From assembly GCA_040879645.1 (NCBI GenBank), contig JBBDJY010000001.1, forward strand, positions 1 to 54,568: 54,568 nt of DNA, given 5' to 3'. Below, piece by piece: positions 5,512 through 53,865 of the stretch (position 1 is the first letter of the stretch; every line of letters starts with the position of its first letter). Source of the DNA: Minisyncoccota bacterium. Lineage in GTDB: Bacteria; Patescibacteriota; Minisyncoccia; Phycocordibacterales; XYD1-FULL-46-19. Both the position numbers and the translations under genes were made by a program. The notes under the pieces were generated by a model. The model searched no databases. It was given only the letters and a program-made list of their open reading frames with translations, and was not told the origin of the DNA.

Positions 5512-5529
5512 TTTGTTATAATTAAAATT

Positions 5530-8893: not shown

Positions 8894-8899
8894 CCACTT

Positions 8900-8930
8900 C
8901 CCCCGAATCGCTTTGGCGATTCGGGGGTTT
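8900..8930 (+). terminator. Rho-independent terminator
   Basis: CCCCCGAATCGC-tttg-GCGATTCGGGGG then TTT. Confidence 0.8.
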
Positions 8931-9015
8931 ATTGTTTGGAGCGTTAAAACCTTCGGTGGTTTTTTGTGCATAAATATTAATTGTTTTGGTGGCCGGTCTG
9001 GTATAATAAAAAGAC

Positions 9016-13011: not shown

Positions 13012-13017
13012 AATTTT

Positions 13018-13524: not shown

Positions 13525-13525
13525 T

Positions 13526-14758: not shown

Positions 14759-14827
14759 ATCGGACTGTCAATATTTTCTAAAATAATGATTATGCTACAA
14801 TGAGCGCATTGTCAGTAATTTTTTACT

Positions 14828-15592: not shown

Positions 15593-15598
15593 TTAATT

Positions 15599-16720: not shown

Positions 16721-16758
16721 TAGTTTTTAACTGATTGAACTATCAGCCGGTTAGAGGT

Positions 16759-17166: not shown

Positions 17167-17267
17167 AAAGCTTTGCCGATTTTCGGTCAAGATTTGAATT
17201 TTGTCCGAATGATGGTAGTCTATGTTTAGAATTCGGATTAACAATCAAAAAAGAAAGGAGGCTTTTA

Positions 17268-17399
17268 ATGACGACAGAAGAGATGCTTACGACCAAGTTC
17301 TGTCCCTATTGTGGGCGGGATATTGAAAACCCGTCTTTCTCTGACCATTGCGAGAAGTGTGGTCGGTGGTGTTTGTCCCACTTATCTCCCTTCGTCTGA
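17268..17399 (+). CDS. Small zinc-ribbon protein (43 aa, below the ORF track cutoff)
   Basis: SD AAGGAGG; MTTEEMLTTKFCPYCGRDIENPSFSDHCEKCGRWCLSHLSPFV with two CxxCG motifs. Confidence 0.7.
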   Translation: MTTEEMLTTKFCPYCGRDIENPSFSDHCEKCGRWCLSHLSPFV

Positions 17400-17427
17400 G
17401 CTAATGTGACGCCAATTAAGGCGGGCT

Positions 17428-17838
17428 TTAAACGGCCCGCCTGATCTTGTCTTGAATGACGGTCATTTCTTTTTCGCTGATTTTTTTCGGTTGCCAGTGA
17501 ATTAAGCCATCATCTTTAAACCGGGGAATAATATGGATATGGGCATGGAAAATCACTTGGCCGGCGGCCGGACCGTTATTCATCCCCAAATTAATGCCTT
17601 CGGCGGCCAAAGCTTTTTTAATGACGCCGGCGACTGTCTGAACGCCGGCAAAGAGGTCCGCCAGTTCATTTTTGGACAGCGTAAAAAAATCTTGATGATG
17701 ACGGCGGGGAATGACCAGGGTATGACCCGGATTATTGGGATTGATATCCAAAAAAGCAATAACTTTTTCGTCTTGATAGACAATCTTGGCCGGTACCATC
17801 CCGTCAATAATTTGGCAAAATAAACAATCTGTTTTCAT
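17428..17838 (-). CDS. HIT family nucleotide hydrolase
   Basis: CLFC, FLDINP..GHTLVIP, HAHIHII histidine triad. Confidence 0.95.
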   Translation of the reverse strand: MKTDCLFCQIIDGMVPAKIVYQDEKVIAFLDINPNNPGHTLVIPRRHHQDFFTLSKNELADLFAGVQTVAGVIKKALAAEGINLGMNNGPAAGQVIFHAHIHIIPRFKDDGLIHWQPKKISEKEMTVIQDKIRRAV

Positions 17839-17901
17839 TAAGCTAAATTATAACCTAAAATAATAAGTTCCAAAATATAAGTTTTTGGATTATAAATAAT
17901 T

Positions 17902-19818
17902 ATGACTAAACGCTGGATTTACTCCGCCTTGCCGGATGAGGTTAAAAATAATCAACTGACCGCTTATCCGGAAATTGTCCAAAGAATTTTATTGTCGCGA
18001 GGGATTGTTAAGGCCGAAGAAGCCGAGTCTTTTCTTAATCCCGACTATGATCAATTGGCTGACCCTTTTTTGTTTAAGGATATGGACAAAGCGGTTAAAC
18101 GCTTGACGACGGCGATTAACCATAAAGAAAAAGTAGTTATTTTTGGCGATTACGATGCCGATGGTGTGCCGGCTAGCGCTTTATTGGCCGAATTTTTTCG
18201 TCTGATTGGTTTTGATAATTTTGAAGTGTATATCCCTCATCGGCATAATGAAGCTTACGGCTTAAGTTTGTCGGCGGTCGAGCGTTTTGGTCGACAAGCG
18301 GTGAAGCTGATTGTGACGGTTGATTGTGGGATTACCGCTATTGATGAAGTGCGTCTGGCTAACCAGCTTGGGATTGATGTTATTATTACCGACCATCATT
18401 TGGTGCCGGAGGTTTTGCCACCGGCGGTTGCTATTATTGACCCCAAACAGCCGGATTGCCGTTATCCCGATAAAATGCTTGCCGGTACCGGTGTCGCTTT
18501 TCGTTTGGCCGTCGCCTTGGCCGACCGCGGGCATTTTTCTTTTAAACCGGGACAGGAGAAATGGCTTTTAGATTTGGTAGCCATTGCGACGGTCAGTGAT
18601 ATGGTCCCGCTTTTGAATGAAAATCGAATTTTGGTTTATTACGGATTGAAGGTTTTGCGCCAAACTCGCCGGCCGGGCCTGAAAAAACTATTAAAGTTAA
18701 TGCGTTTAAAGCCGGAATACCTGACCGAAGACGATATTGGTTTTATGATTGGCCCGCGGATTAATTCGGCCGGCCGGATGACTCACGCTTCCGAAGCTTA
18801 TTTTCTCTTAACGACAACCGAAGAGGATCTGGCTGATCGAATTGCCAAGCGCTTGGAAAAACGGAATCAGGAACGCAAGCAATCGGTGGAAAGTATTTTA
18901 GCCGAAGCCGAAGCTCAATTGGCCGAAGGTGAGTCAGCCGGGCGGGCCCGTCCAACTGCGTCAGCCGGACAGGCCTGCCCGAACAGCTTGCCTGGGCGGG
19001 CCCGTCCGACGGTGTCATCCGGGCAAGCCCGTCCGACGGTGTCATCCGGGCAAGCCCGTCCAACTCGGTTATCCGGGCGGGACCTACCGGCGGTTGTTGT
19101 CTGTGGCGGTAAGCATTGGCCGATTGGTGTTTTGGGTTTGGCCGCCGGTCGGCTAACGGAAAAATACCAAAAAAGCTTTTTTGTCTGGGGTCATAACGGT
19201 GGCGGTGATTTGAAGGGTTCTTGCCGCTCGGACGGCACGGTTAATGTTGTTGACTTAATGGCCGTCGCCAATTCGGCCGATCAATCAACCGGCGGTTTGT
19301 TTGCCGATTTCGGGGGGCATAAAATGGCCGGTGGTTTTTCGATGTCGCCGGAAAAATTGGCAACATTGGAAGAAAGTTTGAATATTGCCTATGAGACATT
19401 GGATAAAAGCGAGGCCGAAAACGAACAATTAATTGATGGCGAATTATCACTGGCTGATATCAATGATAATTTTTACCGCGAACTGGCTCGCTTGGGGCCT
19501 TTCGGTGTTGGTCACCCCAAGCCGATTTTTCTCTTTCGTGGTCTTTGTCTTGAAGCGGTTAAACGTTTTGGTGCCGGTGGCCGCCACTTGGAATTGGTTT
19601 TTAAGGATGGACGGCGTCTGGTCAAGGGGATTGCTTTTTTTGCTTGTCAGCCGGAGGCTGATGCCGGTTTACCTCAAGCTCATATTTTTGGTGAGGTTGA
19701 TTTGGCTCCGGGGCGAGTGATTGATGTCTTGGCTCAGATTGAAGAATCGTTTTTTGGCCGGTGGCCGGTTTTGCGTTTACGGTTAGTTGATTTGGCCAGC
19801 TCGGCGCCGAAGAATTAG
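17902..19818 (+). CDS. recJ: ssDNA exonuclease RecJ with in-frame repeat insertion
   Basis: GDYDADG, TVDCG, TDHH, PRINSAGR, GGHKMAGG. Confidence 0.95.
   Translation: MTKRWIYSALPDEVKNNQLTAYPEIVQRILLSRGIVKAEEAESFLNPDYDQLADPFLFKDMDKAVKRLTTAINHKEKVVIFGDYDADGVPASALLAEFFRLIGFDNFEVYIPHRHNEAYGLSLSAVERFGRQAVKLIVTVDCGITAIDEVRLANQLGIDVIITDHHLVPEVLPPAVAIIDPKQPDCRYPDKMLAGTGVAFRLAVALADRGHFSFKPGQEKWLLDLVAIATVSDMVPLLNENRILVYYGLKVLRQTRRPGLKKLLKLMRLKPEYLTEDDIGFMIGPRINSAGRMTHASEAYFLLTTTEEDLADRIAKRLEKRNQERKQSVESILAEAEAQLAEGESAGRARPTASAGQACPNSLPGRARPTVSSGQARPTVSSGQARPTRLSGRDLPAVVVCGGKHWPIGVLGLAAGRLTEKYQKSFFVWGHNGGGDLKGSCRSDGTVNVVDLMAVANSADQSTGGLFADFGGHKMAGGFSMSPEKLATLEESLNIAYETLDKSEAENEQLIDGELSLADINDNFYRELARLGPFGVGHPKPIFLFRGLCLEAVKRFGAGGRHLELVFKDGRRLVKGIAFFACQPEADAGLPQAHIFGEVDLAPGRVIDVLAQIEESFFGRWPVLRLRLVDLASSAPKN
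18947..19081 (+). repeat. Five tandem 27-bp imperfect palindromes in frame within recJ
   Basis: Units CCYGYCC-N13-GGRCRRG; 19001-19027 and 19028-19054 are identical (cccgtccgacggtgtcatccgggcaag). Confidence 0.9.
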
Positions 19819-39974: not shown

Positions 39975-40577
39975 ATGGATAATCGTACTGCTTATATTTT
40001 TATTGGTCGTTCCGGTTGTGGCAAGGGGACTCAAGCCAAAAAATTGATTGAGTCTTTAACCGCTAACGATGAACGGCTTAAAACCGGTGCCGATCACATT
40101 CTTTATTCCGAGACCGGCCAGTTATTTCGTGATTTTATTGAAACTGACAATTACTCGGCCGGTTTGTCTCGTCAACTGATGGCTAAGGCGGAATTCCAAC
40201 CGACTTTTTTGGCGGTGTGGATTTGGGCGCGAGTCTTGGTGGATAAGATGGATGATCATACCCATATTGTTTTTGATGGTACGCCCAGGTCGCGGATTGA
40301 GGCTGAGGTTTTGGATACCGCTTTGTCTTTTTACGGTTTTAGTCGCAAAATTGTTATTCATTTGGATGTCAGTCGAGATTGGTCAAAAAAGCGTCTCTTG
40401 GCCCGGGGTCGGAAAGACGACAATGATGCCGACATTGAAAGGCGTTTGGATTGGTATGAAACGGAAGTCAAATCAGCTGTTGATTTTTACAATGATCATT
40501 CTGATTATCGTCGTTTGGACATTGACGGGACTCGCTCGATTGAAGAAGTCCACGCCGATTTGATTGGTCAATTATGA
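39975..40577 (+). CDS. adk: Adenylate kinase (short, LID-less)
   Basis: GRSGCGKGTQA, FDGTPR, RGRKDD; canonical position. Confidence 0.88.
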   Translation: MDNRTAYIFIGRSGCGKGTQAKKLIESLTANDERLKTGADHILYSETGQLFRDFIETDNYSAGLSRQLMAKAEFQPTFLAVWIWARVLVDKMDDHTHIVFDGTPRSRIEAEVLDTALSFYGFSRKIVIHLDVSRDWSKKRLLARGRKDDNDADIERRLDWYETEVKSAVDFYNDHSDYRRLDIDGTRSIEEVHADLIGQL

Positions 40578-41341
40578 TTAAGTTAAAGACGACTGATGAC
40601 ATTAAATATTTACAGGAATCGGGTCGGCGCTTGGCGACGGTCTTGACCGAATTGGTTGGCTTGGTTAAGGCCGGTGTTGTTCCTCGCGATTTAGATGATC
40701 GAGCAAGAGAGTTAATCCGTGATTTGGGGGATAAGCCGGCTTTTCTTAATTACCGGCCGGCCGGTTCGGCTTTAGCTTATCCGACGGCTTTATGCGTCTC
40801 TGTTAATAATGAAATCGTCCATGGTATTCCGGGCAAACGAGTGATTAAAGACGGCGATATCGTTACCCTTGATCTTGGTCTTAATCACCAAGGTTATTTT
40901 TCCGATATGGCCATTTCGGTGGCGGTCGGTCGGCCGTCGCCGGAGACGGAAAAATTATTACGGATAACTCACGAGGCTCTCAAGGCCGGTATTGAGGCCG
41001 CTCGTCCCGGCCGACATATCGGCGATATTGGTGCCGCCATTGCCGGCGTCGTTAAATCAGGCGGTGGTAAAATTATTCGTGAATTGGCCGGCCACGGTGT
41101 CGGCTTTGCCGTCCATGAAGATCCGTTGGTGCCAAATGACGGCCAAGCCGGTCAGGGTCTGCTTTTAAAACCGGGGTTGGTGCTGGCACTTGAGCCGATG
41201 GTGACTTTCGGCCGGCCGGCAGTCCGCCTGCTGGACGACGGTTTTACTTTTGTCACCAAAGATGGTAGCATAAGCGCGCACTTTGAACACACGGTGCTCA
41301 TTACCAATGATAAGCCGATTATTTTAACTCAATATGAATAA
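40574..41341 (+). CDS. map: Methionine aminopeptidase type I
   Basis: SVNNEIVHGIP, GHGVG..HEDP, EPM, AHFEHT. Confidence 0.97.
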   Translation: MIKLKTTDDIKYLQESGRRLATVLTELVGLVKAGVVPRDLDDRARELIRDLGDKPAFLNYRPAGSALAYPTALCVSVNNEIVHGIPGKRVIKDGDIVTLDLGLNHQGYFSDMAISVAVGRPSPETEKLLRITHEALKAGIEAARPGRHIGDIGAAIAGVVKSGGGKIIRELAGHGVGFAVHEDPLVPNDGQAGQGLLLKPGLVLALEPMVTFGRPAVRLLDDGFTFVTKDGSISAHFEHTVLITNDKPIILTQYE

Positions 41342-41822
41342 AAAAGTTTCCCACGAACAAACCCTGATTATTATCAAACCCGATGCTATGCACCGCAATC
41401 TCTTGGGCGAAATTATCCACCGGTTTGAACGTAAAGGATTAAAAATTACCGGTCTGAAAATGATTAAATTGGATGACCCGATTTTGGAAAAGCATTATTA
41501 TCATCATAAAGACAAACCGTTTTTTGCCGGTGTTAAAAAATTTATGAAGTCCTCCCCGGTTGTTTTAATGGTCCTTGAGGGTTACAGCGCCATTTCGGCG
41601 ACGCGATTGATTGTCGGCCCTCTCAAGGGTTACGAAGCCGATGCCGGTTCGATCCGCGGGGATTTTTCTTTGAGTACCCAATCCAATATTGTCCACGCTT
41701 CCGATTCGGTTGAAACGGCAGCCGAAGAAATCAAGCGCTTTTTCAAAAAAGAAGAGCTGTTTACCTATACCAAAGCCGAATATCCCTATATTTACGCCGA
41801 AGACGAATTACCGACGGAGTAA
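41334..41822 (+). CDS. ndk: Nucleoside diphosphate kinase
   Basis: IIKPDA, GSIRGDF, NIVHASDS. Confidence 0.96.
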   Translation: MNKKVSHEQTLIIIKPDAMHRNLLGEIIHRFERKGLKITGLKMIKLDDPILEKHYYHHKDKPFFAGVKKFMKSSPVVLMVLEGYSAISATRLIVGPLKGYEADAGSIRGDFSLSTQSNIVHASDSVETAAEEIKRFFKKEELFTYTKAEYPYIYAEDELPTE

Positions 41823-41966
41823 GAAATACTTTTCCGGTTAGGCTCTAAATTTACCCATCCCAATTATTGTATTTTGTATTATGGAATAGTGCGATTAGGC
41901 AATATATAGAGAATATTTAGATTATTGGATATTTTAAGTTTTAAGATTTACTAATTATAAAAACAA

Positions 41967-42602
41967 ATGCTTATCCTTAAGGCAAATACACCCAAAGAAC
42001 TTTACGAAAAAGCATTTTTAGAAGTGTATAAATTACCTAATATAGAAGAGGATCCCAAAAATTATAAAGATGTATCTGCCTTATTAACTTTAGAAAATTA
42101 TAATCAAGATGAAGGGGTTGTGTGGAATAACGAGGGGTTTCACTCTTCATTTGACTATACAAAATACATTATAGAGGGAGATAATCAAATTCAGCTCGAA
42201 GAAGAATATTATAATAAAGAATTTATACAATTTGGTAAATTAGAAAGCTTCTTAAAATACTTTAACAACGACAAGACTACAAAAAAAGGTTTAATAAATC
42301 TTTTAGACGACGATTCTTTAAGTCACATTAAACCTTTTCCTTGTTTAGTTTATGTGTGGTTCAGAAAAATAGGGGATACTCTTCATATGAATTGCCATAT
42401 GAGAGCCAATGACGCATACAAGATTCTTATTATGGATCTTCATGTAGGAAGTAGCCTTCACTTTTATGTGGCTGATAGATTAGGATTAAAAAGAGGAAAT
42501 TATAATCATTTTGTTGATTCATTGCATTTCTATCATAGGAATAAAATAGAAATAGATAAACTGTATAGACAATTGACCTCTGAAAGATTAACTTTAAATT
42601 AA
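41967..42602 (+). CDS. Thymidylate-synthase-fold enzyme, predicted (d)CMP C5 hydroxymethylase/methylase (MilA-like)
   Basis: Catalytic PC; MRANDAYKILIMD (Asp at the ThyA Asn177 position); DSLHFY. Confidence 0.8.
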   Translation: MLILKANTPKELYEKAFLEVYKLPNIEEDPKNYKDVSALLTLENYNQDEGVVWNNEGFHSSFDYTKYIIEGDNQIQLEEEYYNKEFIQFGKLESFLKYFNNDKTTKKGLINLLDDDSLSHIKPFPCLVYVWFRKIGDTLHMNCHMRANDAYKILIMDLHVGSSLHFYVADRLGLKRGNYNHFVDSLHFYHRNKIEIDKLYRQLTSERLTLN

Positions 42603-42655
42603 ATTGAATGTCTATTAGATTATTGTTATACTCATAACCACCAATAATCGTCACT

Positions 42656-43225
42656 ATGGCTGATAAAAAACAAATTGAGATTGAACTGAGAGCCATGTTT
42701 GATGAAGAGAAATTTAACTCTTTGAAGGATTTTTTGGATAAAAATGCTGAATATCTTGGTCCGGATGATAAATATGTCCATTTTTATATTTTATCTGATA
42801 AACTGCTTAAAGTAACTGACAATATCTCTAGAAACAGTGCGAAGTTAACTCTAAAACTCAATCGAATCGGACAGGGTAGTGATTTCGAAGAAATTGAATT
42901 TCCAATTCAAAGAAATAATGTGAAAGAGGCGGTAAAAATGTTTGACTCCCTAAAGATAACTAATCAGGTGATGCGTTCTTTTCAAACTAGATATAACTAT
43001 ATTTTTAAGGAAGTTGAGTTAGCTCTTAAATATAGTTTAGTCTGGAAATATCATCTTGAGTTAGAAATTATTATTGAAGATAAATTACAAAAGAAAGAGG
43101 CGGAAAAAAAGATTCATGATGTGGCAAAAGAGTTGGGTGTAAAAATTATGCCTGAAGAAGAATTGCTAGAATTTGTTAAAAAAGTAGAAGAAGAAAACAC
43201 AAGGAATAATGAGTCTGTCTTTTGA
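42656..43225 (+). CDS. CYTH (triphosphate tunnel) domain protein, copy 1
   Basis: EIELR N-terminal motif, EEIE, HLELE. Confidence 0.85.
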   Translation: MADKKQIEIELRAMFDEEKFNSLKDFLDKNAEYLGPDDKYVHFYILSDKLLKVTDNISRNSAKLTLKLNRIGQGSDFEEIEFPIQRNNVKEAVKMFDSLKITNQVMRSFQTRYNYIFKEVELALKYSLVWKYHLELEIIIEDKLQKKEAEKKIHDVAKELGVKIMPEEELLEFVKKVEEENTRNNESVF

Positions 43226-43234
43226 AGTATTTTT

Positions 43235-43687
43235 ATGAATTATATTAAATACTCTGATTTAAACGAACAAGAAATGTCTTTGGTAGATAAGGCGTTTGAG
43301 GCTGCGGGTCATTCTGAATCTCCATCTGGACACAAGGTAGGTTCAGCAATAATATGCAAAGACGGAAGAGTTTTCCAAGGCGCTACAAATACTAGGACAA
43401 GAACAATAGGATCTACGTGTGCAGAGAGAATGGCTGTGGACCAGATGTTTTATCATGGGAACAAGTATCCTGAACTCGTGGCATTAGTAGGGTTATTACA
43501 AAGAGATAAATGGACGGTAGATAATATTTGTACACCATGTGGGGTCTGTCTTGATATGTATTGGGAGATGATTATGAAGCTAGGTATGGAAGATATAGAT
43601 ATTTTGTGTGTAAGTTGGAATAAAAAAAGGATTTTAAAGACTAGTTTGACTGAATTATATCCAAGAATAGAAGCCGTAAGAAGATAA
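43235..43687 (+). CDS. Cytidine deaminase-like zinc enzyme
   Basis: VGSAI, CAER, PCGVC. Confidence 0.88.
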   Translation: MNYIKYSDLNEQEMSLVDKAFEAAGHSESPSGHKVGSAIICKDGRVFQGATNTRTRTIGSTCAERMAVDQMFYHGNKYPELVALVGLLQRDKWTVDNICTPCGVCLDMYWEMIMKLGMEDIDILCVSWNKKRILKTSLTELYPRIEAVRR

Positions 43688-43688
43688 G

Positions 43689-45101
43689 ATGAAAATTCAA
43701 ACTAATAATTTAGCCCTCTGGGAAGATGCTCATGTTTCCTATGAAATACATGAGCATGATATTGGAAATAAGGACTCGGACTCCAAAATTAAAAAAGAAG
43801 ATAATGAATGGAGGCACAAGCTTTTAACCGAAACGCCGAATGGGAATTTATTGTTAAAAAATTCTTTTTTTAACGATTTAAAATCACAAGATAAAGTATA
43901 TTTAGCTCACGTAACACCGAACTTGCACAATATTCAAGACAATGGTGTTTTATATCCTAGCGCAGGATGTTTGGTGGGAAGTATTTACTGTACGCCTGTG
44001 TTTATGGAAGAAGGTAAGTTGAGAATGCATAATCTGGGGGAATTTATATTTAATAAGGAAATGCCTTTATTTACTAAATTTATTGAAAAAAGAAATCAAA
44101 AACCCTTAGAAATTATAGTATTTGAAATTGATTTACCAACAACCAATGAAAATAATTTAGTTGGTGTGGATTATTTACGCTTGGGCAATGTCCACTTTGA
44201 CACATACAAGGCATTAGAATATCTTTTGTCACCCCATGAGAGAAGTAACTTACAAGAGATATGTACTAACAGAGTCCGTCGAGCATTTAATTATTTGTAT
44301 ACTTGTAACCAAATTCACCAGTCTAATACAAGATTAGATAGTATAAAATTTTTGGAAATGTTTATCAATGCAATTGACCACTTGCCAATCTTGGGGTATT
44401 TTTACTTTGAAGTCTTGACTGAGTATATTATGCTCTTCCAAGATAATAGAGAATCCCAGATTTTTAGTAAACTAGGGGAATTTTATAGTCCATCATATAA
44501 GGAATTAATTTTTTATTTATGTCCCCACCTTTCTAGAAATTTTAGTTTAGGAGAATTTAAACCTACTTTGAAAGGCATTACAAGGTATATCAAGAAGAGA
44601 AAAATAATCAAAAATTTTGATGAAAATACAATGTTTGAATATTTAACGCGTAGGCTAGTATTTTTAACCAACGCAAGATTATTTTCTGAAGATACCGAAT
44701 TTAATAATTGGAAACACTTGAAATGGGAGTTTGATGATATATCTGGAGGTATGGACAAGCTCCTCGGGCATCTTATTCATCGAGAATTAAGAAATTTTGG
44801 TAGATATCCATATTTTTATTTTTATTTTGAACAGCACAAAGCCCTTTCGATTTGGAATTATTGGAATTATCTGAATATTGCAATTCCTTTTAATGGTATT
44901 ATCCCTAAGGGTGAAGTTGGAATAAATCCAGCTTATCCTGATTTAAAATACAAAACATATTCAACTGAAATAGTTAAGGAAAATGGATATTCTTATCTAA
45001 ATCTTAAAGAGGAATTAGATTTAGATATTGCCCCGAAACTTGTAGATTATAAGTTTACATCAATGAGAAATAGATGCAAAAATCATGGAAAAACCAACTA
45101 A
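43689..45101 (+). CDS. Uncharacterised 470-aa protein, possible ADP-ribosyltransferase-like N-terminal fold
   Basis: Tightly coupled ORF; YLAHVT.NL..I...G.LYPS..SIYCT. Confidence 0.6.
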   Translation: MKIQTNNLALWEDAHVSYEIHEHDIGNKDSDSKIKKEDNEWRHKLLTETPNGNLLLKNSFFNDLKSQDKVYLAHVTPNLHNIQDNGVLYPSAGCLVGSIYCTPVFMEEGKLRMHNLGEFIFNKEMPLFTKFIEKRNQKPLEIIVFEIDLPTTNENNLVGVDYLRLGNVHFDTYKALEYLLSPHERSNLQEICTNRVRRAFNYLYTCNQIHQSNTRLDSIKFLEMFINAIDHLPILGYFYFEVLTEYIMLFQDNRESQIFSKLGEFYSPSYKELIFYLCPHLSRNFSLGEFKPTLKGITRYIKKRKIIKNFDENTMFEYLTRRLVFLTNARLFSEDTEFNNWKHLKWEFDDISGGMDKLLGHLIHRELRNFGRYPYFYFYFEQHKALSIWNYWNYLNIAIPFNGIIPKGEVGINPAYPDLKYKTYSTEIVKENGYSYLNLKEELDLDIAPKLVDYKFTSMRNRCKNHGKTN

Positions 45102-45693
45102 TTATCCAAAAGTCTATTTTGTAGGAGGTGTAAATGGAGTCGGTAAGTCCACTCTTTTAACCGAAATATCTATTAGGTATCCTGAATTCCGTATAATTAA
45201 AGGCTCGTCTTTATTTATGGAATGGCTTGGGGTTACTCCGGGTGATTATAATAGTCTTAGATCTTTACCGGATTATTATAAAATAAGTGAATTTAATAAA
45301 ATGATGGATAATCTTTTGTCAAAACAAGTTTTAGACGAAAGAGTGATGTTAGTAGACGCTCATTATTTTCATTATAAACGAGGTGAGATGATTGATACCA
45401 CTGGAGATTGGATGTCGAGTCTAAATGCTTTGTTTGTAATTACCGGAGAGGTAGAAGAAATTTTTAAAAGAGTTTTGGAGGATACTAAAGATAGAGATTT
45501 GTTCCCGAGAGGAACTTCTAGATATGAGCAGAAGGAGTTATTGAGGATATATTTAGAAGGCACTAATCAAAAAGCTCAAGAAATATCTAACAGGTATAGA
45601 ATACCACTTTTCACCATAAATAATATCCAAGGTAATATAAATAAAGTAGTAGATTATTTTTTAGTTGCACATACTAATATAATTAATAAGTGA
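45085..45693 (+). CDS. P-loop nucleoside monophosphate kinase (AdkA/AAA_17-like)
   Basis: GGVNGVGKST, LVDAHY, R...D..R lid. Confidence 0.8.
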   Translation: MEKPTNYPKVYFVGGVNGVGKSTLLTEISIRYPEFRIIKGSSLFMEWLGVTPGDYNSLRSLPDYYKISEFNKMMDNLLSKQVLDERVMLVDAHYFHYKRGEMIDTTGDWMSSLNALFVITGEVEEIFKRVLEDTKDRDLFPRGTSRYEQKELLRIYLEGTNQKAQEISNRYRIPLFTINNIQGNINKVVDYFLVAHTNIINK

Positions 45694-45694
45694 T

Positions 45695-46438
45695 ATGAAA
45701 GAAAAAATAACAGAAAAAAAAATTGACCGGCTACAAAATGAAATTATGGACATACTTCATAATTATGAGATTGCGCATGGTTTGAGTAGATCACTTAATC
45801 TATTAAAGAAAGAAATAGTTATTTACCAAAATCATCTCAAGGGTTTACGAGAGTGGAAAAGAAAAAAAGAAAATTATAATACTTCAAAAATTCAGATAGG
45901 TGGGGGAAAACATATATTAGAAGGTTATTTGAATATTGATATTGTGCCTCCTGCGGACTTAATTTGTGATATTAGAGAAGGTATTCCACTAGAAAGTCAA
46001 TCTAGTGAATTTATATTTAGCGAGCATTTTTTTGAACATGTCGACTATCCAATATCGTCTAAGAAAATAATCAGTGAATTTTTTAGGATTTTAAAATATG
46101 GAGGACAAGTTGTCTTAGGTGTGCCAGATAGTGAATTGGTAGTCAAAAGTTATGTTAATAAAGACAGAGAATTTTACGAAAAAGCGTTAAATACCTGGTA
46201 TATAAATAGAGGATGTTTGGATGATTTTAATACTTATATTGATCTCTTAAATTATCATTTTAGGGATCAGGATGATGATGAAAAATATAACCCTCATTAT
46301 TGGGCTTACGATTTTGATAAATTGCAATCATTGTTTAGGAATGCTAAATTCAACAAAGTAGAGAGGTGGGAGTTTGATCCTTTTATTGCAAATCCCAAGA
46401 GAAAATGGGGTAGTGTTTACATAATAGCCACAAAATAA
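45695..46438 (+). CDS. Class I SAM-dependent methyltransferase
   Basis: IQIGGG, YLNID, SEHFFEH, RILKYGG..VPD. Confidence 0.85.
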   Translation: MKEKITEKKIDRLQNEIMDILHNYEIAHGLSRSLNLLKKEIVIYQNHLKGLREWKRKKENYNTSKIQIGGGKHILEGYLNIDIVPPADLICDIREGIPLESQSSEFIFSEHFFEHVDYPISSKKIISEFFRILKYGGQVVLGVPDSELVVKSYVNKDREFYEKALNTWYINRGCLDDFNTYIDLLNYHFRDQDDDEKYNPHYWAYDFDKLQSLFRNAKFNKVERWEFDPFIANPKRKWGSVYIIATK

Positions 46439-46486
46439 CCCCATAAATTATATGATCACATCTATTATACTTTTGAAAGTTATAAA

Positions 46487-47233
46487 ATGAATCTTCGTCA
46501 GGAATTATTAAATAAAAATAAACCAAGGCATCAATTTCATGATAGTGAATCTTTAGCGTGGTTGGCGTATAATCGTCCTAATTATCTGTTAAATCAATAT
46601 CAGTTTGAAAGATTGTTATTAAAAACAATAGATAGGGAAAAGCCATGGGTTAAATGTGAAGATTGTTGGTTTACAAGTGATTTAATAAAAGACGGCATTC
46701 ATGGATTTCGCCATGTTTGTAGGGTGGCAATATATTCAATACTGATTGCTCTCCGAGAAAAGCCAACAATATCAAGAGAGGAAATAAATGTCCTAGTTTA
46801 CATTGCTCTTTTACATGATTGTCGTCGCAAAAATGACAACACGGACCCACGACATGGTATTAGAGCTGTACGGTGGTTATATAAAAATCGTTACTTAATA
46901 CCGAAGGACTTAACATCTTTCTACCAAGCAATCAAGTTTTCCATAGAAGTACATAATGATAATTATAGTAAAATAGTTGAAAACAAAAATTACAAAAAAT
47001 TCAAATTTTTTGTAGACATATTAAAAACAGCTGATGCTTTAGATCGTTATCGTTTTCCTAGAACTGATTGGTGGATTTGTGATAAATTTATTGTTTTGGC
47101 CCCAGACCAAAGAGAAATGGCTTTCGCATATGATTTTGTTTTGGAAAGTGAAAGCTTATTTGTTTTTAATAAAAATAATAGAGTTTCTATCGAACAATCA
47201 TGGAAAAAATTAAACAAGACACACAAAATTTAA
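46487..47233 (+). CDS. HD-domain metal-dependent phosphohydrolase/oxygenase
   Basis: HGFRHVCRV, LLHDCRR, HG, H, ADALDR. Confidence 0.85.
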   Translation: MNLRQELLNKNKPRHQFHDSESLAWLAYNRPNYLLNQYQFERLLLKTIDREKPWVKCEDCWFTSDLIKDGIHGFRHVCRVAIYSILIALREKPTISREEINVLVYIALLHDCRRKNDNTDPRHGIRAVRWLYKNRYLIPKDLTSFYQAIKFSIEVHNDNYSKIVENKNYKKFKFFVDILKTADALDRYRFPRTDWWICDKFIVLAPDQREMAFAYDFVLESESLFVFNKNNRVSIEQSWKKLNKTHKI

Positions 47234-47994
47234 TACCAAACAAAATTAAAAAAGGGAATTTTAAGAAATTTATTCTACAAATAAGGAATGTATTTAATCT
47301 GGAAATAAGGAGAAATAAAGAGATAATCAAGATATGCTCCCCTTATTCGATGATATCTGATTATTCTTTGTCTAGACTAATCTCATTGGTTGGAGTGGTA
47401 AACAAAGAAAAAATTTCAGGTGCTCTTGTTGAGTGTGGTGTCTGGAAAGGGGGAGCTTGTATGGCCATGGCTTTAGCTCAAATGAAATATTCTGAAGAAT
47501 ATAGAGATATTTGGCTTTACGACACATTTAATGGCATGACAATGCCGGCCTTAGAAAACGATGGATTAAAGGCAGAAAGAAAATATGAAGATATTAAGTC
47601 TGGAAAACATATTGATAGATACGATAAATGGCACAATCAATATAAATGGATCTATTGTCCAATAAATATAGTGAAAAAAAACATAAATTCAACGGATTAT
47701 CCTGTTGAAAAATTAAAATTTATAAAGGGTGATATTAATAAAACTCTTGATAGCACGACTCCATCTAAAATAGCTATTTTGCGTCTTGACACCGATTGGT
47801 ATCAGAGCACGAAAAAAGAATTAGACACTCTATCACCAATGCTTTCAGTAGGTGGTTTTATTATTATTGATGACTATTATGCTTGGCAAGGATCAAAAAA
47901 AGCGACAGATGAGTTTTTAGCTGAAAATCCAACTGCTTTTAAGATTGTTGACAAATGTGCTCCGGAACCCTTAATATTAAGGAAGATTCTCTAA
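47200..47994 (+). CDS. TylF/MycF/NovP-family O-methyltransferase
   Basis: VECGVWKGG, YDTF.GM, LRLDTDWYQST, IDDY. Confidence 0.92.
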   Translation: MEKIKQDTQNLIPNKIKKGNFKKFILQIRNVFNLEIRRNKEIIKICSPYSMISDYSLSRLISLVGVVNKEKISGALVECGVWKGGACMAMALAQMKYSEEYRDIWLYDTFNGMTMPALENDGLKAERKYEDIKSGKHIDRYDKWHNQYKWIYCPINIVKKNINSTDYPVEKLKFIKGDINKTLDSTTPSKIAILRLDTDWYQSTKKELDTLSPMLSVGGFIIIDDYYAWQGSKKATDEFLAENPTAFKIVDKCAPEPLILRKIL

Positions 47995-48007
47995 GAAAGG
48001 AGGTGTC

Positions 48008-48556
48008 ATGAAAAGGCATATTGAAGTTGAGTACAGGGCGCGTTTCTCTAAGGATGAATACAGCCGGCTTTTGTCTATTCTGGAGGAAGAAGGGAAAGAC
48101 CTTGGGCCAGATGACAAACATGTTTACTTCTTCATCCTTCCAGATAAACTCTTGAAAGTGACGGACAATGTCTCTCAAAACACTGCTAAAATCACTGGAA
48201 AGTTGACCAGGATTGGGGAAGGTAGTAGTTTTGAAGAAATTGAATTTTCTATTGCCAGAGAAGATGTTGCTATGGCTGTCCTACTCTTTCAGAAGTTTGG
48301 TTTTACTGATGTTCATCGTTCGTTTCAAAGCCGCCACAACTTCTGGTATCATGGTGTTGAAATTGCCCTGAAATATAGCGATATGTGGGGGTATCATGCC
48401 GAACTGGAGATTGTGATTGGTGATGAGTCGGAAAAGAGTAGCGCCGATTTGCAAATTCACAACGTTGCTCAAGAACTTGGTATTATTCTCATGACCGAGA
48501 AAGAACTTAAAGATTTTGTCCAAGAGAAAGAGTTAGAGATCAAGTCAAGCCATTAA
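48008..48556 (+). CDS. CYTH domain protein, copy 2
   Basis: EVEYR, LGPDDK, DKLLKVTDN, HAELE; SD AAGGAGGT. Confidence 0.85.
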   Translation: MKRHIEVEYRARFSKDEYSRLLSILEEEGKDLGPDDKHVYFFILPDKLLKVTDNVSQNTAKITGKLTRIGEGSSFEEIEFSIAREDVAMAVLLFQKFGFTDVHRSFQSRHNFWYHGVEIALKYSDMWGYHAELEIVIGDESEKSSADLQIHNVAQELGIILMTEKELKDFVQEKELEIKSSH

Positions 48557-48636
48557 GTCGCGTTATCTGCTATAGGCGGATCACGCGGCTTTTTAAAAAT
48601 TAAAAAACCCTGTCTCGTTAGATAACGAAACAGGGT
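48555..48636. terminator. Two hairpins between convergent genes
   Basis: AAGTCGCGT..ACGCGGCTT+TTT and ACCCTGTCTCGTTA-ga-TAACGAAACAGGGT. Confidence 0.65.
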
Positions 48637-48655
48637 CGTGCCACAAACTAATGGG

Positions 48656-48937
48656 TTAGAGCTTGAGGGGCTGCAATCGATCCCTCACCACATCCTGGTG
48701 GATGAGTTCGGGGAGAGCAATCCCCTCGATGACCACATTGCGCGCTGAGCATTCTTCCATTGTCTCCATCTGACACTTGTCAAACAAGGCGACAGCTTCG
48801 CGACCGTACCGGATCGCTTCTTCGCTATTGCCTGCCCGCTTGTGGATTACAGCGAGAACATAGGCGTGTTCAGCCGCGTTGCGAGGGTCCACTTCGCTTA
48901 GTGAGGCGAGGGACTGTTCGAGGGCCGCGTATTGCAT
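48656..48937 (-). CDS. Hypothetical helical (TPR-like) protein, 93 aa
   Basis: SD GAGGA before ATG 48937; AYVLA..G..EEA..Y...A pattern. Confidence 0.65.
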   Translation of the reverse strand: MQYAALEQSLASLSEVDPRNAAEHAYVLAVIHKRAGNSEEAIRYGREAVALFDKCQMETMEECSARNVVIEGIALPELIHQDVVRDRLQPLKL

Positions 48938-48956
48938 GATGTTTCCTCTCTCTGTT

Positions 48957-49583
48957 TTAGTGATTATTGGATTCTCCGAGGACAAAATGAACAAAGTCAT
49001 CCGCCCTCTCCCATGTCACCAGTTCATTTGGGCTAAACCAGTTCGCGATTTCCTGCTCTGCTTCTTCGATTGTACCAGAAGCGTGAACAAGATTCTTGCA
49101 AGCGCTTCCCGCCACATTCGCCAGGTCTGGTGCGTTGATGGAGAAATCTCCGCGGATCGTGCCAGGTGTTGCTTTGTATGGCAGGGTGTGTCCGATAAGC
49201 TTTCTCACTGTGTCAACAGAGTGAATGCCTTCAAGCACTATTGCCATCACTGGACCGAGCATCAAATAATGGTAGTTCCATTCTTTGATCTTGTGTCCAA
49301 TGGTAAGTGCGTCGGCGGTACCAAGAATCTCAATCGGATCCATGTTGTACTCTCGGTACGTCTCGAGAGTTTTCTCACCCATTCCCCGAATCCATTCCTT
49401 GGATTTAGGAAAGTGGCCATCCAACAATCCTTTAGTTGGAAGAACCATCTTGCATGCTACGATCTTGAGGCCTACCTGCTCGAATCGCTGACAAATGACA
49501 CCCATGAGGCCTCGCGTGATCGCATCAGGCTTGATGAGTACAAATGTTCGCTCCCCCATCATCTTTTGTAAGAGTTTCTTCAC
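48957..49583 (-). CDS. ndk: Second nucleoside diphosphate kinase (long form)
   Basis: LIKPDA, PGTIRGDF, NLVHASG; SD AAAGGAGGT before GTG. Confidence 0.93.
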   Translation of the reverse strand: MKKLLQKMMGERTFVLIKPDAITRGLMGVICQRFEQVGLKIVACKMVLPTKGLLDGHFPKSKEWIRGMGEKTLETYREYNMDPIEILGTADALTIGHKIKEWNYHYLMLGPVMAIVLEGIHSVDTVRKLIGHTLPYKATPGTIRGDFSINAPDLANVAGSACKNLVHASGTIEEAEQEIANWFSPNELVTWERADDFVHFVLGESNNH

Positions 49584-49696
49584 CTACTATACCTCCTTTG
49601 TGAATGTACTGTTTAAGAAACCGACAACCGATTTCTTCTAATAGAATCCTACCATATTTTATTAAGGTATGCAAGGGTTGTACTTGAATTCAATAT

Positions 49697-49725
49697 TTGG
49701 CAAAAAAACCGACTTTGTATATAAT
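49697..49725 (+). promoter_or_regulatory. sigma70 promoter of the ncRNA
   Basis: TTGGCA-N17-TATAAT. Confidence 0.75.
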
Positions 49726-49731
49726 AAGGAC

Positions 49732-49855
49732 AGGCTGCTTGGGGTATTATCTAGATCAAATAATGTCTTACGGGAGTTCTATATTGCCGTATGCCGTGGC
49801 ATAGGGTTGCGGACACCCACCTAGTTCAGGCTAGGTAAGACACTCTGAGCAGCCT
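49732..49855 (+). ncRNA. ssrS: Structured ncRNA, probable compact 6S RNA
   Basis: Ends pair over 13 bp; internal GGGAGTTC/GGACACCC stem; CACCCACCT-hairpin; own promoter and terminator; no ORF. Confidence 0.55.
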
Positions 49856-49856
49856 A

Positions 49857-49890
49857 AAATAAACCCCACCGGCCGGTGGGATTTATTTTT
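49857..49890 (+). terminator. Rho-independent terminator
   Basis: AAATAAA-CCCACC-ggcc-GGTGGG-TTTATTTTT. Confidence 0.7.
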
Positions 49891-49901
49891 AACAAATATT
49901 A

Positions 49902-50366
49902 ATGTATCGAAATAAATACATCATCACTGCCGTTGTTAGTTTGGCTACTTTATTAGCCGTTCTTAATTTTTTTGCTTTCCAATATTTTTGGTATTGGCGC
50001 TTTGCTTATTTTGACCTGGGGATGCATTTTTTGGGCGGTCTATTGATTGGTTTTATAAGTGTGATTATCTACACTGCTTGGCGGCCGGACTCTTTGATCT
50101 TTCGTCAATTGGCCGTTATGGCGGTCGCTGTCGTTTTAGTGGCCGGCGGGTTTTGGGAAATTTTCGAATTCAGTATAGATACTTATTGGGCGGCCCATGT
50201 TAATATTAAATCATTCCAAGTTTTGCAATCCGGCTTGACCGATACCCTGTCTGATCTTTTATTTGATGCGATTGGCGGTTTAACGGCTGCCGTTTTAATT
50301 AATCGTTTTTATTACCACCGAAAATTTTTAAGTCATCAGATTAGTTATGAAAAAGGAAATCAATAA
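49902..50366 (+). CDS. Membrane protein (VanZ/DUF2238-like)
   Basis: 4 TM; D..MHFLGG, WEIFE, DTLSDL..D..G. Confidence 0.75.
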   Translation: MYRNKYIITAVVSLATLLAVLNFFAFQYFWYWRFAYFDLGMHFLGGLLIGFISVIIYTAWRPDSLIFRQLAVMAVAVVLVAGGFWEIFEFSIDTYWAAHVNIKSFQVLQSGLTDTLSDLLFDAIGGLTAAVLINRFYYHRKFLSHQISYEKGNQ

Positions 50367-51753
50367 ATCAGAGTCGGGGAATAAGCTCAAACTGTCGTTT
50401 TTTGGCGGCGCCGAATCGGTGACCGGTGCTAATTTTATGCTTCAATCTTTTGACCCTGACGCCAAGACGATTTTAGTGGATTGTGGCTTGCATCAAGGGA
50501 GTAAGGTTTGCGATGATGCCAACCGACTGGATTTTGCCTATGATCCCAAGACAGTCGATGTGTTATTTGTTACTCATGCTCATTTGGATCATATCGGCCG
50601 GATTCCCAAATTGGTGCGCGACGGTTTCCGGGGGGTTATTTATTCCACGCCACCGACTAAAGATATGGCCCAATTGTCTTTAATCGACAGTTTAGGGGTA
50701 ATGGAAAAAGAATCTCGGCATGATAATCAAGAAATTTTTTATGAAGAAGAAGATGTTAAACAGGCGATGTCTTTATGGCAAACCCTTGATTATCACCAAC
50801 CTTTGGCGATTGGTGAATTTACCGCGGTTTTGCGTGATGCCGGTCATATCCTCGGTTCGGCGATGGTGGAATTAACCTATGCGCGTAAAAAAATCGTTTT
50901 TACCGGCGACTTGGGTAATTCGCCGGCGCCGTTACTGCGCGATACCGAGGCCGTCTCTGATGCCGATTATTTGATTATGGAAAGTGTCTATGGCGACCGC
51001 AATCATGAAGAACGAGATGAACGCAAACACAAATTACGGCAAATTATCCATGACACGATGAAGGCCGGTGGGACTTTAATGGTGCCGGCTTTCTCGATTG
51101 AACGGACTCAAGAATTATTATTTGAAATCGAAAATATGATGGAAGCCGGTGAGATTCCCGAAGTGCCGGTCTTTTTGGATTCGCCATTGGCTATTGGTAT
51201 TACCGCTATTTACAAGCGGTACAAGAATTATCTTAATCGGAATGTTAATATGATTGATGTTTCTGGTGATGGGGTTTTCAAATTTCCTCATTTGCGCTTA
51301 ACCAAAAAAACCGCGGAGTCCAGGGCGATTAATAGTGTGCCGCCTCGGAAAATCATTATTGCCGGTTCGGGAATGTCTAATGGCGGACGAATTATCCATC
51401 ACGAAAAACGCTATTTACCCGATGCTAAAAACACCTTGCTGTTAATCGGCTATCAAGCCGCCGGCAGTTTGGGTCGACAATTATCCGATGGCGCGGGGAG
51501 TGTTAATATTTTAGGCGAAACGGTGTCGGTTAATGCTCGGATTGCCCAAGTTCGCGGTTATTCGGCGCATAAGGATTCGGATAATTTGCTGGAATTTGTT
51601 TCTCATTCGGCCGAGACGTTGAAAAAAGTTTTTGTCGTTATGGGCGAACCGAAATCATCACTCTTTCTCACCCAAAGAATCAGAGATTATCTCGGCTTGG
51701 ATGCGGTGGCGCCAAGTCTGGGAGCCGTTTATGATCTTGATTTGGAAGAATAG
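50347..51753 (+). CDS. MBL-fold beta-CASP ribonuclease
   Basis: THAHLDHIG, AGHILGS, FTGDLG, ESVYG, SAHKD. Confidence 0.93.
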   Translation: MKKEINKSESGNKLKLSFFGGAESVTGANFMLQSFDPDAKTILVDCGLHQGSKVCDDANRLDFAYDPKTVDVLFVTHAHLDHIGRIPKLVRDGFRGVIYSTPPTKDMAQLSLIDSLGVMEKESRHDNQEIFYEEEDVKQAMSLWQTLDYHQPLAIGEFTAVLRDAGHILGSAMVELTYARKKIVFTGDLGNSPAPLLRDTEAVSDADYLIMESVYGDRNHEERDERKHKLRQIIHDTMKAGGTLMVPAFSIERTQELLFEIENMMEAGEIPEVPVFLDSPLAIGITAIYKRYKNYLNRNVNMIDVSGDGVFKFPHLRLTKKTAESRAINSVPPRKIIIAGSGMSNGGRIIHHEKRYLPDAKNTLLLIGYQAAGSLGRQLSDGAGSVNILGETVSVNARIAQVRGYSAHKDSDNLLEFVSHSAETLKKVFVVMGEPKSSLFLTQRIRDYLGLDAVAPSLGAVYDLDLEE

Positions 51754-53478: not shown

Positions 53479-53865
53479 GGGGATGATCGGCCTAGACAAG
53501 CGGTCATGTTTTCCAGATGCATACCGAGATTCCGAGGATTCTCGTAAATCACCCTCGGGCACCAATAAGTGCAAAATCTGAACAAGGAGTAGCATCTCCT
53601 TACACTCCGGCTTTCGCTTTAGCCTAAGCCGGCATCTCAACCCCTGATGTCTGATAGGGGAGGCGAGGTGTCATAATCATCAGACTGGAGTCGTTTTTCG
53701 CTTCAAGAACGGCTTGAGACCAAAGAAGCTCGGCCCAGGCGGCTTTTGTTTATTTAATACCGTCTTGGCTTAAACCGCGCTTGCGCGGAAACTAAATAAA
53801 CTAAGTATGTAGAATTATGGAAACCATTCGTTTGCACGCGGGTTCGATTCCCGCCATCTCCACCA
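53479..53865 (+). ncRNA. ssrA: tmRNA
   Basis: GGGGATG/CATCTCCACCA acceptor with G3-U; T-arm GGTTCGATTCC; tag frame AKSEQGVASPYTPAFALA* at 53571-53627; next to smpB. Confidence 0.96.

Follow-up and report, generated by a model that had tools for sequence, protein, structure and literature searches.

Bacteriophage T4 makes its modified deoxynucleoside triphosphates (dNTPs) with the dCTPase gp56, the dCMP hydroxymethylase gp42, the dNMP kinase gp1, a nucleoside diphosphate kinase (NDK) and a dCMP deaminase. Pathways built on CMP hydroxymethylases of the MilA/BcmA type lead to mildiomycin and bacimethrin, the Kongming defence system unites a deaminase, a HAM1-like protein and a SIR2 effector, and in DarT-DarG, as in the mART and phosphodiesterase of SidE, an ADP-ribosyltransferase (ART) is paired with a hydrolase. 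Here we describe an island at positions 41823-49901 of a stretch of 54,568 nucleotides (contig JBBDJY010000001.1, referred to as the window) from a Minisyncoccota bacterium of the candidate phyla radiation (CPR). At its centre stand an HD-domain protein and a 470-aa protein, U470, and given that this pair is surrounded by nucleotide-modifying enzymes, the function of the genes is probably the synthesis of an unusual, non-canonical nucleotide. The reading favoured here, to which a probability of roughly 0.45 is given, is that the island is the most complete version known so far of a nucleotide-remodelling cassette that is conserved and horizontally mobile, and that this cassette provides a non-canonical pyrimidine nucleotide in the conflict between cells and phages.

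The composition of the cassette was derived from the loci in which U470 occurs elsewhere, namely one locus from a genome, 73 from metagenomes and two from viral collections, where the genome scan was queried with one protein. Genes were counted with family hidden Markov models (HMMs) at distances of up to 7 kb from U470, with U470 collapsed at 90% identity or more (73 loci giving 58 groups). The same set of genes recurs in dozens of loci, in many unrelated genomes, which places their arrangement beyond chance, and the locus counts (Table 1), together with natural fusions in both domain orders, identify HD and U470, usually joined by CYTH, as the conserved core. Random accretion, which the sequence-only reading of this DNA had named as the outcome that would undo it, fails because the genes recur together in other loci. 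The kinase, the methyltransferase MT1, the thymidylate synthase-like (TS-like) gene with a second CYTH, the cytidine deaminase (CDA), and NDK with TPR are optional modules, and the route to a C5-modified cytidine is an optional branch and not the core of the cassette. The recurring layouts are CYTH-CDA-HD-U470-MT1, CYTH-HD-U470-TS-CYTH-kinase(-MT1), CYTH-HD-U470-kinase-MT1 and, in high-GC hosts, NDK-TPR-CYTH-HD-U470-MT1. The TS and CDA modules are combined in the window and in its closest relatives (loci L004-L007, 62-73% identity). In one metagenomic locus (L016, 524-2773), kinase-CYTH-CDA-HD-U470-MT1 is preceded by a further HD fragment, a phosphotransferase of the APH type and a nucleotidyltransferase of the Pol-beta type.

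A database clustered at 90% identity contains 356 homologues of U470 (240 representatives at 50% identity), all of them unnamed or called hypothetical, free of Pfam domains and without a name that would indicate a function. No match to U470 itself was obtained in Pfam, NCBIfam, PHROG or PADLOC. Its carriers include Microgenomates, Woesebacteria, Shapirobacteria, Paceibacterota, a Syntrophomonadaceae metagenome-assembled genome, Streptomyces and Carbonactinospora, with an identity of 42-45% between the CPR and the Streptomyces proteins. Across 30 sequences 74 columns are invariant, and the motifs with the strongest conservation lie in the C-terminal part. The N-terminal domain (residues ~40-215) is possibly ADP-ribosyltransferase-like, which is to be taken as a lead. 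For residues 40-215, the 30 best named ESM-Atlas matches comprise 23 to Arr-ms, one to DarT/PARP, two to Tox-ART-HYD1 and four to unclassified 'rifampin ART' clusters, with scores of 0.90-0.92, a range that the calibration of the tool treats as no more than a lead. The conserved residues of this domain are H74-x-T76 (AHVT), Y100 (G.LYPSGGCLVGSIYCTP; G-x-x-Y) and E124, and we take the motifs AHVT and G.LYPSGGCLVGSIYCTP and the conserved Glu to resemble the H-Y-E signature of ADP-ribosyltransferases. In a single hhalign alignment against the Tpt1/KptA profile, of non-significant score, AHVT is placed over YHGT. A search for ART sequences in CPR genomes gave no Arr-ms in 151 and one sub-threshold DarT match in 301.

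The partner of U470 is, as judged from its conserved residues, an HD phosphohydrolase, and its association with U470 is obligate. The invariant residues of the family (n=21) are H72, H76, H110-D111, H123, H156, D183 and D186, in the H..HD..D pattern, and the family profile matches the HD hydrolase 2pq7 in the PDB at 2.7e-4; single-sequence PDB searches with HD and with the kinase were uninformative, the family profiles being the ones that gave matches. Natural fusions of the two proteins occur with HD at the N-terminus (P0169, P0189) and at the C-terminus (P0249), with HMM E-values of 6e-43 to 7e-65 for HD and 1e-59 to 1e-96 for U470. Even in the most divergent branch, found on plasmids of Streptomyces and Nonomuraea, in which U470 keeps 30-34% identity, a member of the HD family lies directly upstream of U470 (9e-75, 6e-63). 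A protein of 4266 aa (P0263) contains epimerase, ROK kinase, dehydroquinate (DHQ)-synthase-like, HAD and phosphoribosyltransferase (PRTase) domains together with a U470 domain at 3593-3981; it may stem from a eukaryotic gene model or from the merging of gene calls.

The island is a genuine insertion in the CPR genome. The bCASP gene is present in all 36 genomes of the same family, and the region was fetched from ten of these. The order secY-adk-map-(ndk)-DUF2238/bCASP is kept in all ten, and none of the ten has a homologue of TS-like, CYTH, CDA, U470, kinase, MT1, HD, TylF or TPR at that locus, NDK being the only exception; in the nearest relative (G007, locus L081; protein identity of 72-78%) DUF2238 comes directly after ndk1. 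Given that the ten relatives have the native gene order without the island genes, the DNA between the stop of ndk1 and the start of DUF2238 is inserted. An independent contig of 17.7 kb covers 40500-51000, both junctions included, with no differences; it comes from the sole sequencing run that holds the stretch, which may be the source sample itself, and there was no RNA run among the runs found to hold it (this one only). No att-like repeats were found flanking the island. The host genome has 736 kb in 18 contigs and is 99.7% complete.

The eleven closely packed genes of the ORF (open reading frame) listing comprise nine on the forward strand, which overlap or lie 1-53 bp apart, and two convergent ones on the reverse strand (TPR-like and NDK2). 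The GC content is about 30% across 42-48 kb and about 45% in the surroundings. All eleven genes named in the sequence-only reading are present by ORF listing and Pfam, and its view of a dedicated, horizontally acquired nucleotide-enzyme operon stands. Its description of the operon as AT-rich is right from TS-like to TylF (29-37% GC) and wrong for CYTH2 (41%), TPR (53%) and ndk2 (48%). It had also placed the insertion between ndk and a 6S-like RNA: the insertion directly after ndk1 is borne out, and the RNA is not, with no Rfam match at gathering score in the window other than to tmRNA, and none to any family at E<=1 in 41700-50400.

The cassette has the character of a horizontally mobile accessory element. 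U470 was found in one of 60 relatives and in one of 400 other sampled genomes of the phylum, and a relative of the same family, G020, holds a decayed remnant (locus L098, contig C8, 2386-3914) in which U470 is truncated and has lost an internal part, MT1 is intact and HD is reduced to a fragment of 63 aa. The GC content of the hosts spans 27%-69%. In a tree built with a quick method, for which SH-aLRT was the only measure of support, one clade unites the high-GC sequences (99) and the other those of low and mid GC (98), and the architectures mostly track the tree. Two provirus-class records of IMG/VR, with CheckV completeness of 74% and 82%, carry NDK-TPR-CYTH-HD-U470-MT1, and an integrase is found at one end of one of them. 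The proviral cassette lies directly upstream of genes for tail-completion/Neck1, major tail (5.5e-32) and tape-measure (1.5e-99) proteins, and the assignment as provirus rests on this tail-side context and on the IMG/VR label. In both records there was no match to the capsid (PF05065) and TerL (PF03354) models, and two ORFs upstream gave no match or unannotated matches only. For the viral locus L077, sequenced phages gave no match at the DNA level. In the viral locus L078, a 631-aa ABC-transporter-like gene (12430-14325; phrog_2392, 1.7e-86) lies between the MT1 of the cassette and the neck and tail genes of the provirus.

The HD-U470 pair is also found on six large plasmids of Streptomyces and Nonomuraea. 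In the two that were inspected it stands amid genes for an epimerase/dehydratase, a Gfo/Idh/MocA oxidoreductase, GT2/GT4 and methyltransferases. One of these plasmids has a trio of radical-SAM, tmk and NUDIX genes nearby, and the other has an adjacent 3'-5' exonuclease gene and a Pycsar-effector gene about 5 kb off.

Table 1. Features of the island and its borders, and occurrence of the gene families in other loci within 7 kb of U470. Column 5, loci flanked by 3 kb or more on either side; column 6, loci flanked by 1 kb or more on either side. The counts for CYTH refer to the family.
Feature	Position	Strand	Length, match or form	Loci (>=3 kb)	Loci (>=1 kb)
ndk1	41334-41822				
TS-like	41967-42602	+	211 aa; Pfam Thymidylat_synt (PF00303) 25 bits, cut-off 24.3	8/25	15/35
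CYTH1	42656-43225	+	Pfam CYTH 36 bits, above cut-off	22/25	31/35
CDA	43235-43687	+	Pfam dCMP_cyt_deam_1 36.3 bits	7/25	10/35
U470	43689-45101	+	470 aa; no family match		
P-loop nucleoside monophosphate (NMP) kinase	45085-45693	+	AAA_17 32 bits	12/25	19/35
MT1, class I S-adenosylmethionine (SAM)-dependent methyltransferase	45695-46438	+	Methyltransf_11 23.4 bits	17/25	20/35
HD	46487-47233	+	Pfam HD 18 bits, under cut-off 22	24/25 (directly upstream of U470 in 23)	33/35
TylF O-methyltransferase	47200-47994	+	Pfam TylF 137.9 bits	0/25	0/35
CYTH2	48008-48556	+	Pfam CYTH 24.9 bits, above cut-off		
Terminator-like hairpin	48606-48637	-	14-pair stem, 6 GC pairs, then T-run; ends the convergent ndk2-TPR unit		
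TPR-like, small	48656-49000	-	TPR_12 22.7 bits, under cut-off 30.1	4/25	4/35
NDK2, long-form	48957-49583	-	Pfam NDK 112 bits, in two stretches	4/25 (NDK2-type)	4/35
DUF2238	49902-50366				

The TS-like protein is probably a cytosine-nucleotide C5 transferase of the hydroxymethylase kind. Its match to PF00303 is marginal and confined to profile positions 108-223 (24.5 bits in the genome-wide search), with no TS profile positions matched in its first ~90 residues, where TS has its folate-binding N-terminal region. In the PDB it matches a short 'thymidylate synthase', 9iqu, at 6.7e-7 and the CMP 5-hydroxymethylase MilA, 5b6d, at 9.9e-6; the entries 9IQU, 9IQC and 9IR2 are not named in any relevant paper found. 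The alignment with MilA runs across the catalytic Cys and the MRANDA...D segment, and no match exceeds ~28 bits. Within the family (n=21), Cys126 is kept in at least 90% of the members, R133, R146 and D157 are invariant, and D157 is aligned with the Asp of the 'SDV' of MilA, at the position which we take to be that of the uracil-reading Asn of dUMP-specific TS. Contig 9 of the host carries a canonical ThyA (7.5e-56) beside SHMT, and no ThyX was found in the genome. Given that the host has its own ThyA and SHMT, the TS-like protein is not the housekeeping enzyme. The premise of the sequence-only reading, that CPR bacteria generally lack de novo nucleotide synthesis, needs qualifying here, as this host does possess pyrimidine tools. 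In the loci that possess the TS-like module a CYTH gene comes after it.

CYTH1 and CYTH2, which share 51% identity, are assigned by their conserved residues to the triphosphate tunnel metalloenzymes (TTMs). The invariant residues of the family (n=31) are E6, E8, R10, K37, K65, E77, R109, K122 and E132, R10 being an Arg in the place of the Lys of an ExExK-type motif, and the nearest solved structures are archaeal TTMs, with Pyrococcus PH1819 at 4.4e-12 and a match also to SaTTM. CYTH2 is of the type that elsewhere stands upstream of HD-U470, and it shares 45-58% identity with those genes. CDA is, by its motifs and structural matches, a tetrameric cytidine deaminase of the nucleoside type: C62-A-E64 (CAE) and P101-C102..C105 (PCGVC) are invariant in 11 sequences, and the nearest solved protein to the profile is yeast CDD1 (1r5t, 2.1e-11), followed by other tetrameric cytidine deaminases. 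It is not the housekeeping orthologue, since its score of 45.6 against the NCBIfam equivalog is under the cut-off of 113.65. The kinase family profile matches adenylate kinases in the PDB (6ln3 at 7.7e-9 and 1nks at 1.5e-8), i.e., the archaeal adenylate-kinase type. MT1 has 39 invariant columns in 25 sequences, and its sole PDB match is 1vlm, an uncharacterised methyltransferase. TylF is seen in this window only, with no homologue in 77 other loci by blastp.

NDK2 belongs to the cassette, as NDK and TPR precede CYTH-HD-U470 in actinobacterial and proviral loci. Its NLVHAS motif with the catalytic His is present in the sequence. TPR-like homologues adjoin the NDK of the cassette in seven loci by blastp (four of the 25 non-redundant loci), and none is found at the native ndk loci of the ten relatives. 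At the ndk position of these relatives (L081-L090), a short NDK of the ndk1 type is present in two, a long one of the ndk2 type in seven, and no NDK match in one, a difference that looks like gene replacement inside one bacterial family. The window carries both types, and its ndk2 is paired with the TPR gene as in the cassettes elsewhere. A 230-aa ORF lies antisense to ndk2 (48879-49571, forward strand) with no Pfam match; its recurrence in five other loci simply follows from the conservation of ndk2, and it is unlikely to be a gene. By Pfam, there is no transporter, resistance or regulator gene and no radical-SAM domain among the island proteins.

In the favoured reading, the cassette would run a cycle that resembles the T4 route to modified dNTPs, with CYTH and HD removing triphosphates, TS-like and the methyltransferases tailoring at the level of the monophosphate, and kinase and NDK re-phosphorylating. 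The catalytic motifs are intact in TS-like, CYTH, CDA, kinase, NDK2 and HD. A CYTH enzyme would take a (d)CTP-type nucleotide down to the monophosphate, and the TS-like enzyme would add a one-carbon unit to C5 of the cytosine nucleotide, for which methylene-tetrahydrofolate should be available because the host has SHMT. The base or the ribose could then be tailored by CDA, MT1 and, here only, TylF, and the adenylate-kinase-like NMP kinase and NDK2 would restore the triphosphate. HD and U470 would perform the conserved signature step, the best guess being a ribosyl- or ADP-ribosyl-type transfer by the N-terminal domain of U470 followed by cleavage of a phosphoester by HD. The product would be a non-canonical pyrimidine nucleotide for the conflict between cell and phage, used in defence or counter-defence rather than in housekeeping. 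Proviruses and plasmids carry the cassette, it is rare, its GC is foreign and in one relative it has decayed, all of which points to a role in conflict or one that is otherwise dispensable. The extra neighbours in other loci, which are also nucleotide enzymes (NUDIX, His_Phos_1, Ham1), count for the favoured reading as well. A more specific version, which we consider doubtful, would make HD and U470 a two-enzyme module of ART-like transferase and phosphodiesterase that uses NAD+ or a related donor to give a pyrimidine nucleotide of a hitherto unknown class, (phospho)ribosylated or otherwise hyper-modified. Its substrate would be prepared and re-phosphorylated by the modules for CYTH, TS-like, CDA, methyltransferases and kinase, the product would be immune or anti-immune in action, and the cassette would be spread by prophages and plasmids among CPR bacteria and Actinobacteria.

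Several steps of this scheme had been anticipated by the sequence-only reading. Its route from CMP to a modified CTP agrees with the catalytic Cys and the MilA-like Asp of the TS-like protein, but the enzymes concerned, TS-like and CDA, are not part of the core; as for the onward steps from NMP to NTP, kinase plus NDK could indeed carry the product to the triphosphate. As regards its O-methylation branch, TylF is an add-on that occurs in no other locus. The suggestion of an NAD-consuming effector finds no SIR2 or TIR domain in the island by Pfam, and as to defence, the island proteins match nothing in PADLOC and the 149 neighbour ORFs scanned show no systematic context of defence islands. It was correct in seeing no MilB-type gene (the MilB/BlsM CMP N-glycosidase) and no nonribosomal peptide synthetase (NRPS) gene, neither of which is found by Pfam among the 11 island proteins, nor are the later assembly genes of a mildiomycin/blasticidin-type cluster.

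A number of observations weigh against the favoured reading. TS-like and CDA are each lacking in many loci, and cytidine may thus have no part in the core reaction at all. The CDA is of the nucleoside type, yet there is no nucleoside kinase in the window. No effector, sensor or transporter is evident in the island, the plasmid branch adjoins sugar enzymes and not nucleotide kinases, and U470 is found in none of the 50,697 phage records of INPHARED. The fold of U470 contributes further points: its profile has no match in the PDB, Pfam searches of 30 members at E<=10 reveal no recurring family and no ART, a profile of the N-terminal domain searched against 5.8 billion proteins retrieves its own family only (21 fragments), and hhalign against the Tpt1/KptA profile gives a probability of 0.18% and an E-value of 0.34. 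Given that these profile tests fall short of significance, the ART fold is unproven. More generally, the steps are read from sequence.

The surroundings of the cassette weigh in the same direction. Among the neighbours of the low-GC loci, for which the first 149 of the 189 ORFs passing filters were taken, housekeeping genes prevail (tRNA synthetase, GreA, Mur ligase, DnaG). None of ten island proteins matches PADLOC-DB 2.0.0 below an E-value of 0.001, and among the 149 neighbours the PADLOC matches are scattered and no one system accompanies the cassette repeatedly, a result that lends no support to a defence-island context but does not prove its absence. The recurrent extras in this set are NUDIX (six), radical SAM (four), His_Phos_1 (three) and Ham1 (two), and no integrase or transposase is among its 25 commonest families. 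Three neighbour proteins match the models of the prokaryotic viperins (pVips), the best at 2.4e-17. An association with viperin was considered and rejected, as these matches are weak, look like generic radical-SAM cross-matches and most likely correspond to ORFs clustered in locus L003. In this locus, from Paceibacterota, three radical-SAM ORFs stand in a row 1.3 kb downstream of the cassette (13437-17905); they most likely account for the pVip-model matches, and they may be a separate peptide-maturation cluster.

Part of the same evidence would fit a pathway of secondary metabolism, in which the product is a small molecule derived from a nucleoside or a sugar nucleotide (an antimetabolite or antibiotic of the mildiomycin/bacimethrin kind) and not an intracellular nucleotide. 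Such a pathway would account for the likeness of the TS-like protein to MilA, for the relationship of TylF, whose nearest solved structures are the sugar O-methyltransferases of antibiotic pathways NovP (7.1e-22) and MycF, for the epimerase/dehydratase, Gfo/Idh/MocA and GT2/GT4 genes that adjoin the plasmid versions, and for the 4266-aa fusion of U470 with epimerase, ROK kinase, DHQ-synthase-like, HAD and PRTase domains. Nonetheless, we regard it as unlikely: the island has no transporter, resistance or regulator gene and no MilB-type hydrolase, most carriers are CPR bacteria with genomes of ~0.5-1.2 Mb, the cassette is found within proviruses, and kinase plus NDK suggest a triphosphate and not a secreted form. 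The gene arrangement could instead reflect a pair that modifies macromolecules, with an ART-like U470 acting on DNA, RNA or protein, HD trimming or reversing the adduct, and the nucleotide enzymes supplying or recycling substrates, for example an adenylate-kinase-like enzyme and NDK recycling released AMP; this would follow the logic of DarT-DarG or of SidE. All family sets listed for the 30 best named Atlas matches of U470 residues 40-215 have the ART fold, the H-x-T, G-x-x-Y and Glu pattern is conserved, HD is an obligate and at times fused partner, and the kinase is closest to adenylate kinases. However, no sequence-profile method supports the ART fold, the Atlas scores are leads only, and the TS-like, CDA and CYTH enzymes are hard to account for as suppliers, which makes this explanation rather unlikely.

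CPR cells rely on salvage, and the cassette might therefore serve in salvage or house-cleaning, turning scavenged or damaged pyrimidine nucleotides into usable ones in a host-dependent cell. The kinases, phosphohydrolases and deaminase of the gene content would suit such a function, as would the NUDIX, Ham1 and histidine phosphatase genes that recur nearby, but a salvage function would hardly be expected of a cassette that is so rare, decayed in a relative and foreign in GC, or of one that is also found inside proviruses and in Streptomyces, which has no need for it; moreover, methyltransferases build structures rather than recycle them. Salvage is for these reasons improbable. That the genes are a chance accretion without a shared function, as the confinement of TylF to this window and the uneven GC across the island might suggest, is hardly credible given that the same families occur in the same order in dozens of loci, in hosts with 27-69% GC, and that HD and U470 are naturally fused. 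The synthesis of a non-canonical pyrimidine nucleotide in cell-phage conflict is preferred over these four explanations.

With regard to signals and RNAs, the only Rfam match in the window is a tmRNA at 53479-53865, with the tag peptide AKSEQGVASPYTPAFALA. The intergenic region 49584-49901, which the sequence-only reading took for the 6S-like RNA, holds a promoter-like site with 11 of 12 positions matched (49697-49725) and a GC-rich palindrome or terminator-like hairpin (49856-49889). The gap between ndk and DUF2238 measures ~210-360 bp in several of the ten relatives, and given that a comparable gap recurs, a conserved leader or small RNA at 49584-49901 is possible. The promoter scan was at chance level, as was the terminator scan (5 found, 4.7 expected), so that the hairpin of Table 1 is telling by its position only. 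Elsewhere in the window, positions 1-6300 form a second AT-rich stretch, with a GC fraction of 0.32-0.38, in which four co-directional ORFs on the reverse strand (257-4290; 212, 298, 304 and 524 aa) are followed by two on the forward strand (4660-6288); a further foreign island may lie here. At 8001-9000 the GC fraction peaks locally at 0.55, with ~0.45 nearby.

No published description of the gene set or of U470 was found in the full-text literature; subscription journals and supplementary files lay outside the search, so that a prior description is possible. Cassettes for nucleotide modification are as such already known, and it is the HD-U470 core enzyme pair that is new. U470 is a family locked to an HD hydrolase amid nucleotide-tailoring enzymes, and it is found in some of the smallest bacterial genomes, where each gene is costly, as well as in actinobacterial proviruses and giant plasmids. 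Working out what it catalyses might bring to light a nucleotide modification not known so far, or a nucleotide with a new antiviral or antimetabolite action, and would assign a function to a widespread 'hypothetical protein'. The window provides a clean example, in which an 8-kb foreign cassette has entered a CPR genome immediately after the secY-adk-map-ndk cluster.

When compared with the described systems, the cassette shows partial likeness to several. With Kongming it shares a deaminase, a Ham1 gene near some of the loci and the logic of a nucleotide kinase, whereas it has no SIR2 or other NAD-consuming effector in the island and its deaminase is of the cytidine and not the adenosine type. 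The idea of a modified, CTP-like antiviral nucleotide made beside a nucleotide kinase is common to the pVip loci, from which the island differs in having no radical-SAM gene. The cassette recalls DarT-DarG and SidE in that a possibly ART-like enzyme is paired with a phosphohydrolase, obligately and sometimes by fusion, but here the partner is an HD protein and not a macrodomain, there is no toxin-antitoxin signature, and the ART fold of U470 is only a candidate. In comparison with the MilA/BcmA pathways, no N-glycosidase of the MilB/BcmB type is present in the island, and CYTH, HD, U470 and NDK have no counterpart there, while the TS-like protein aligns with MilA and a methyltransferase and a kinase occur together as in the bacimethrin cluster. 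The differences from T4 concern the setting, i.e., cellular genomes, proviruses and plasmids instead of the replication module of a lytic phage, and the content: the invariant HD and U470 are not in T4, the TS-like enzyme is optional (8/25) and short (211 aa), the deaminase is of the nucleoside type, and DNA glucosyltransferases are lacking. For jumbo phages, a passage of one paper holds that CYTH and MazG triphosphatases might remove unmodified NTPs (PMC7824862). In its inventory the cassette is nonetheless like that of T4, with a triphosphate-removing enzyme (CYTH), a TS-fold enzyme for C5 of cytosine, an NMP kinase, an NDK and a deaminase.

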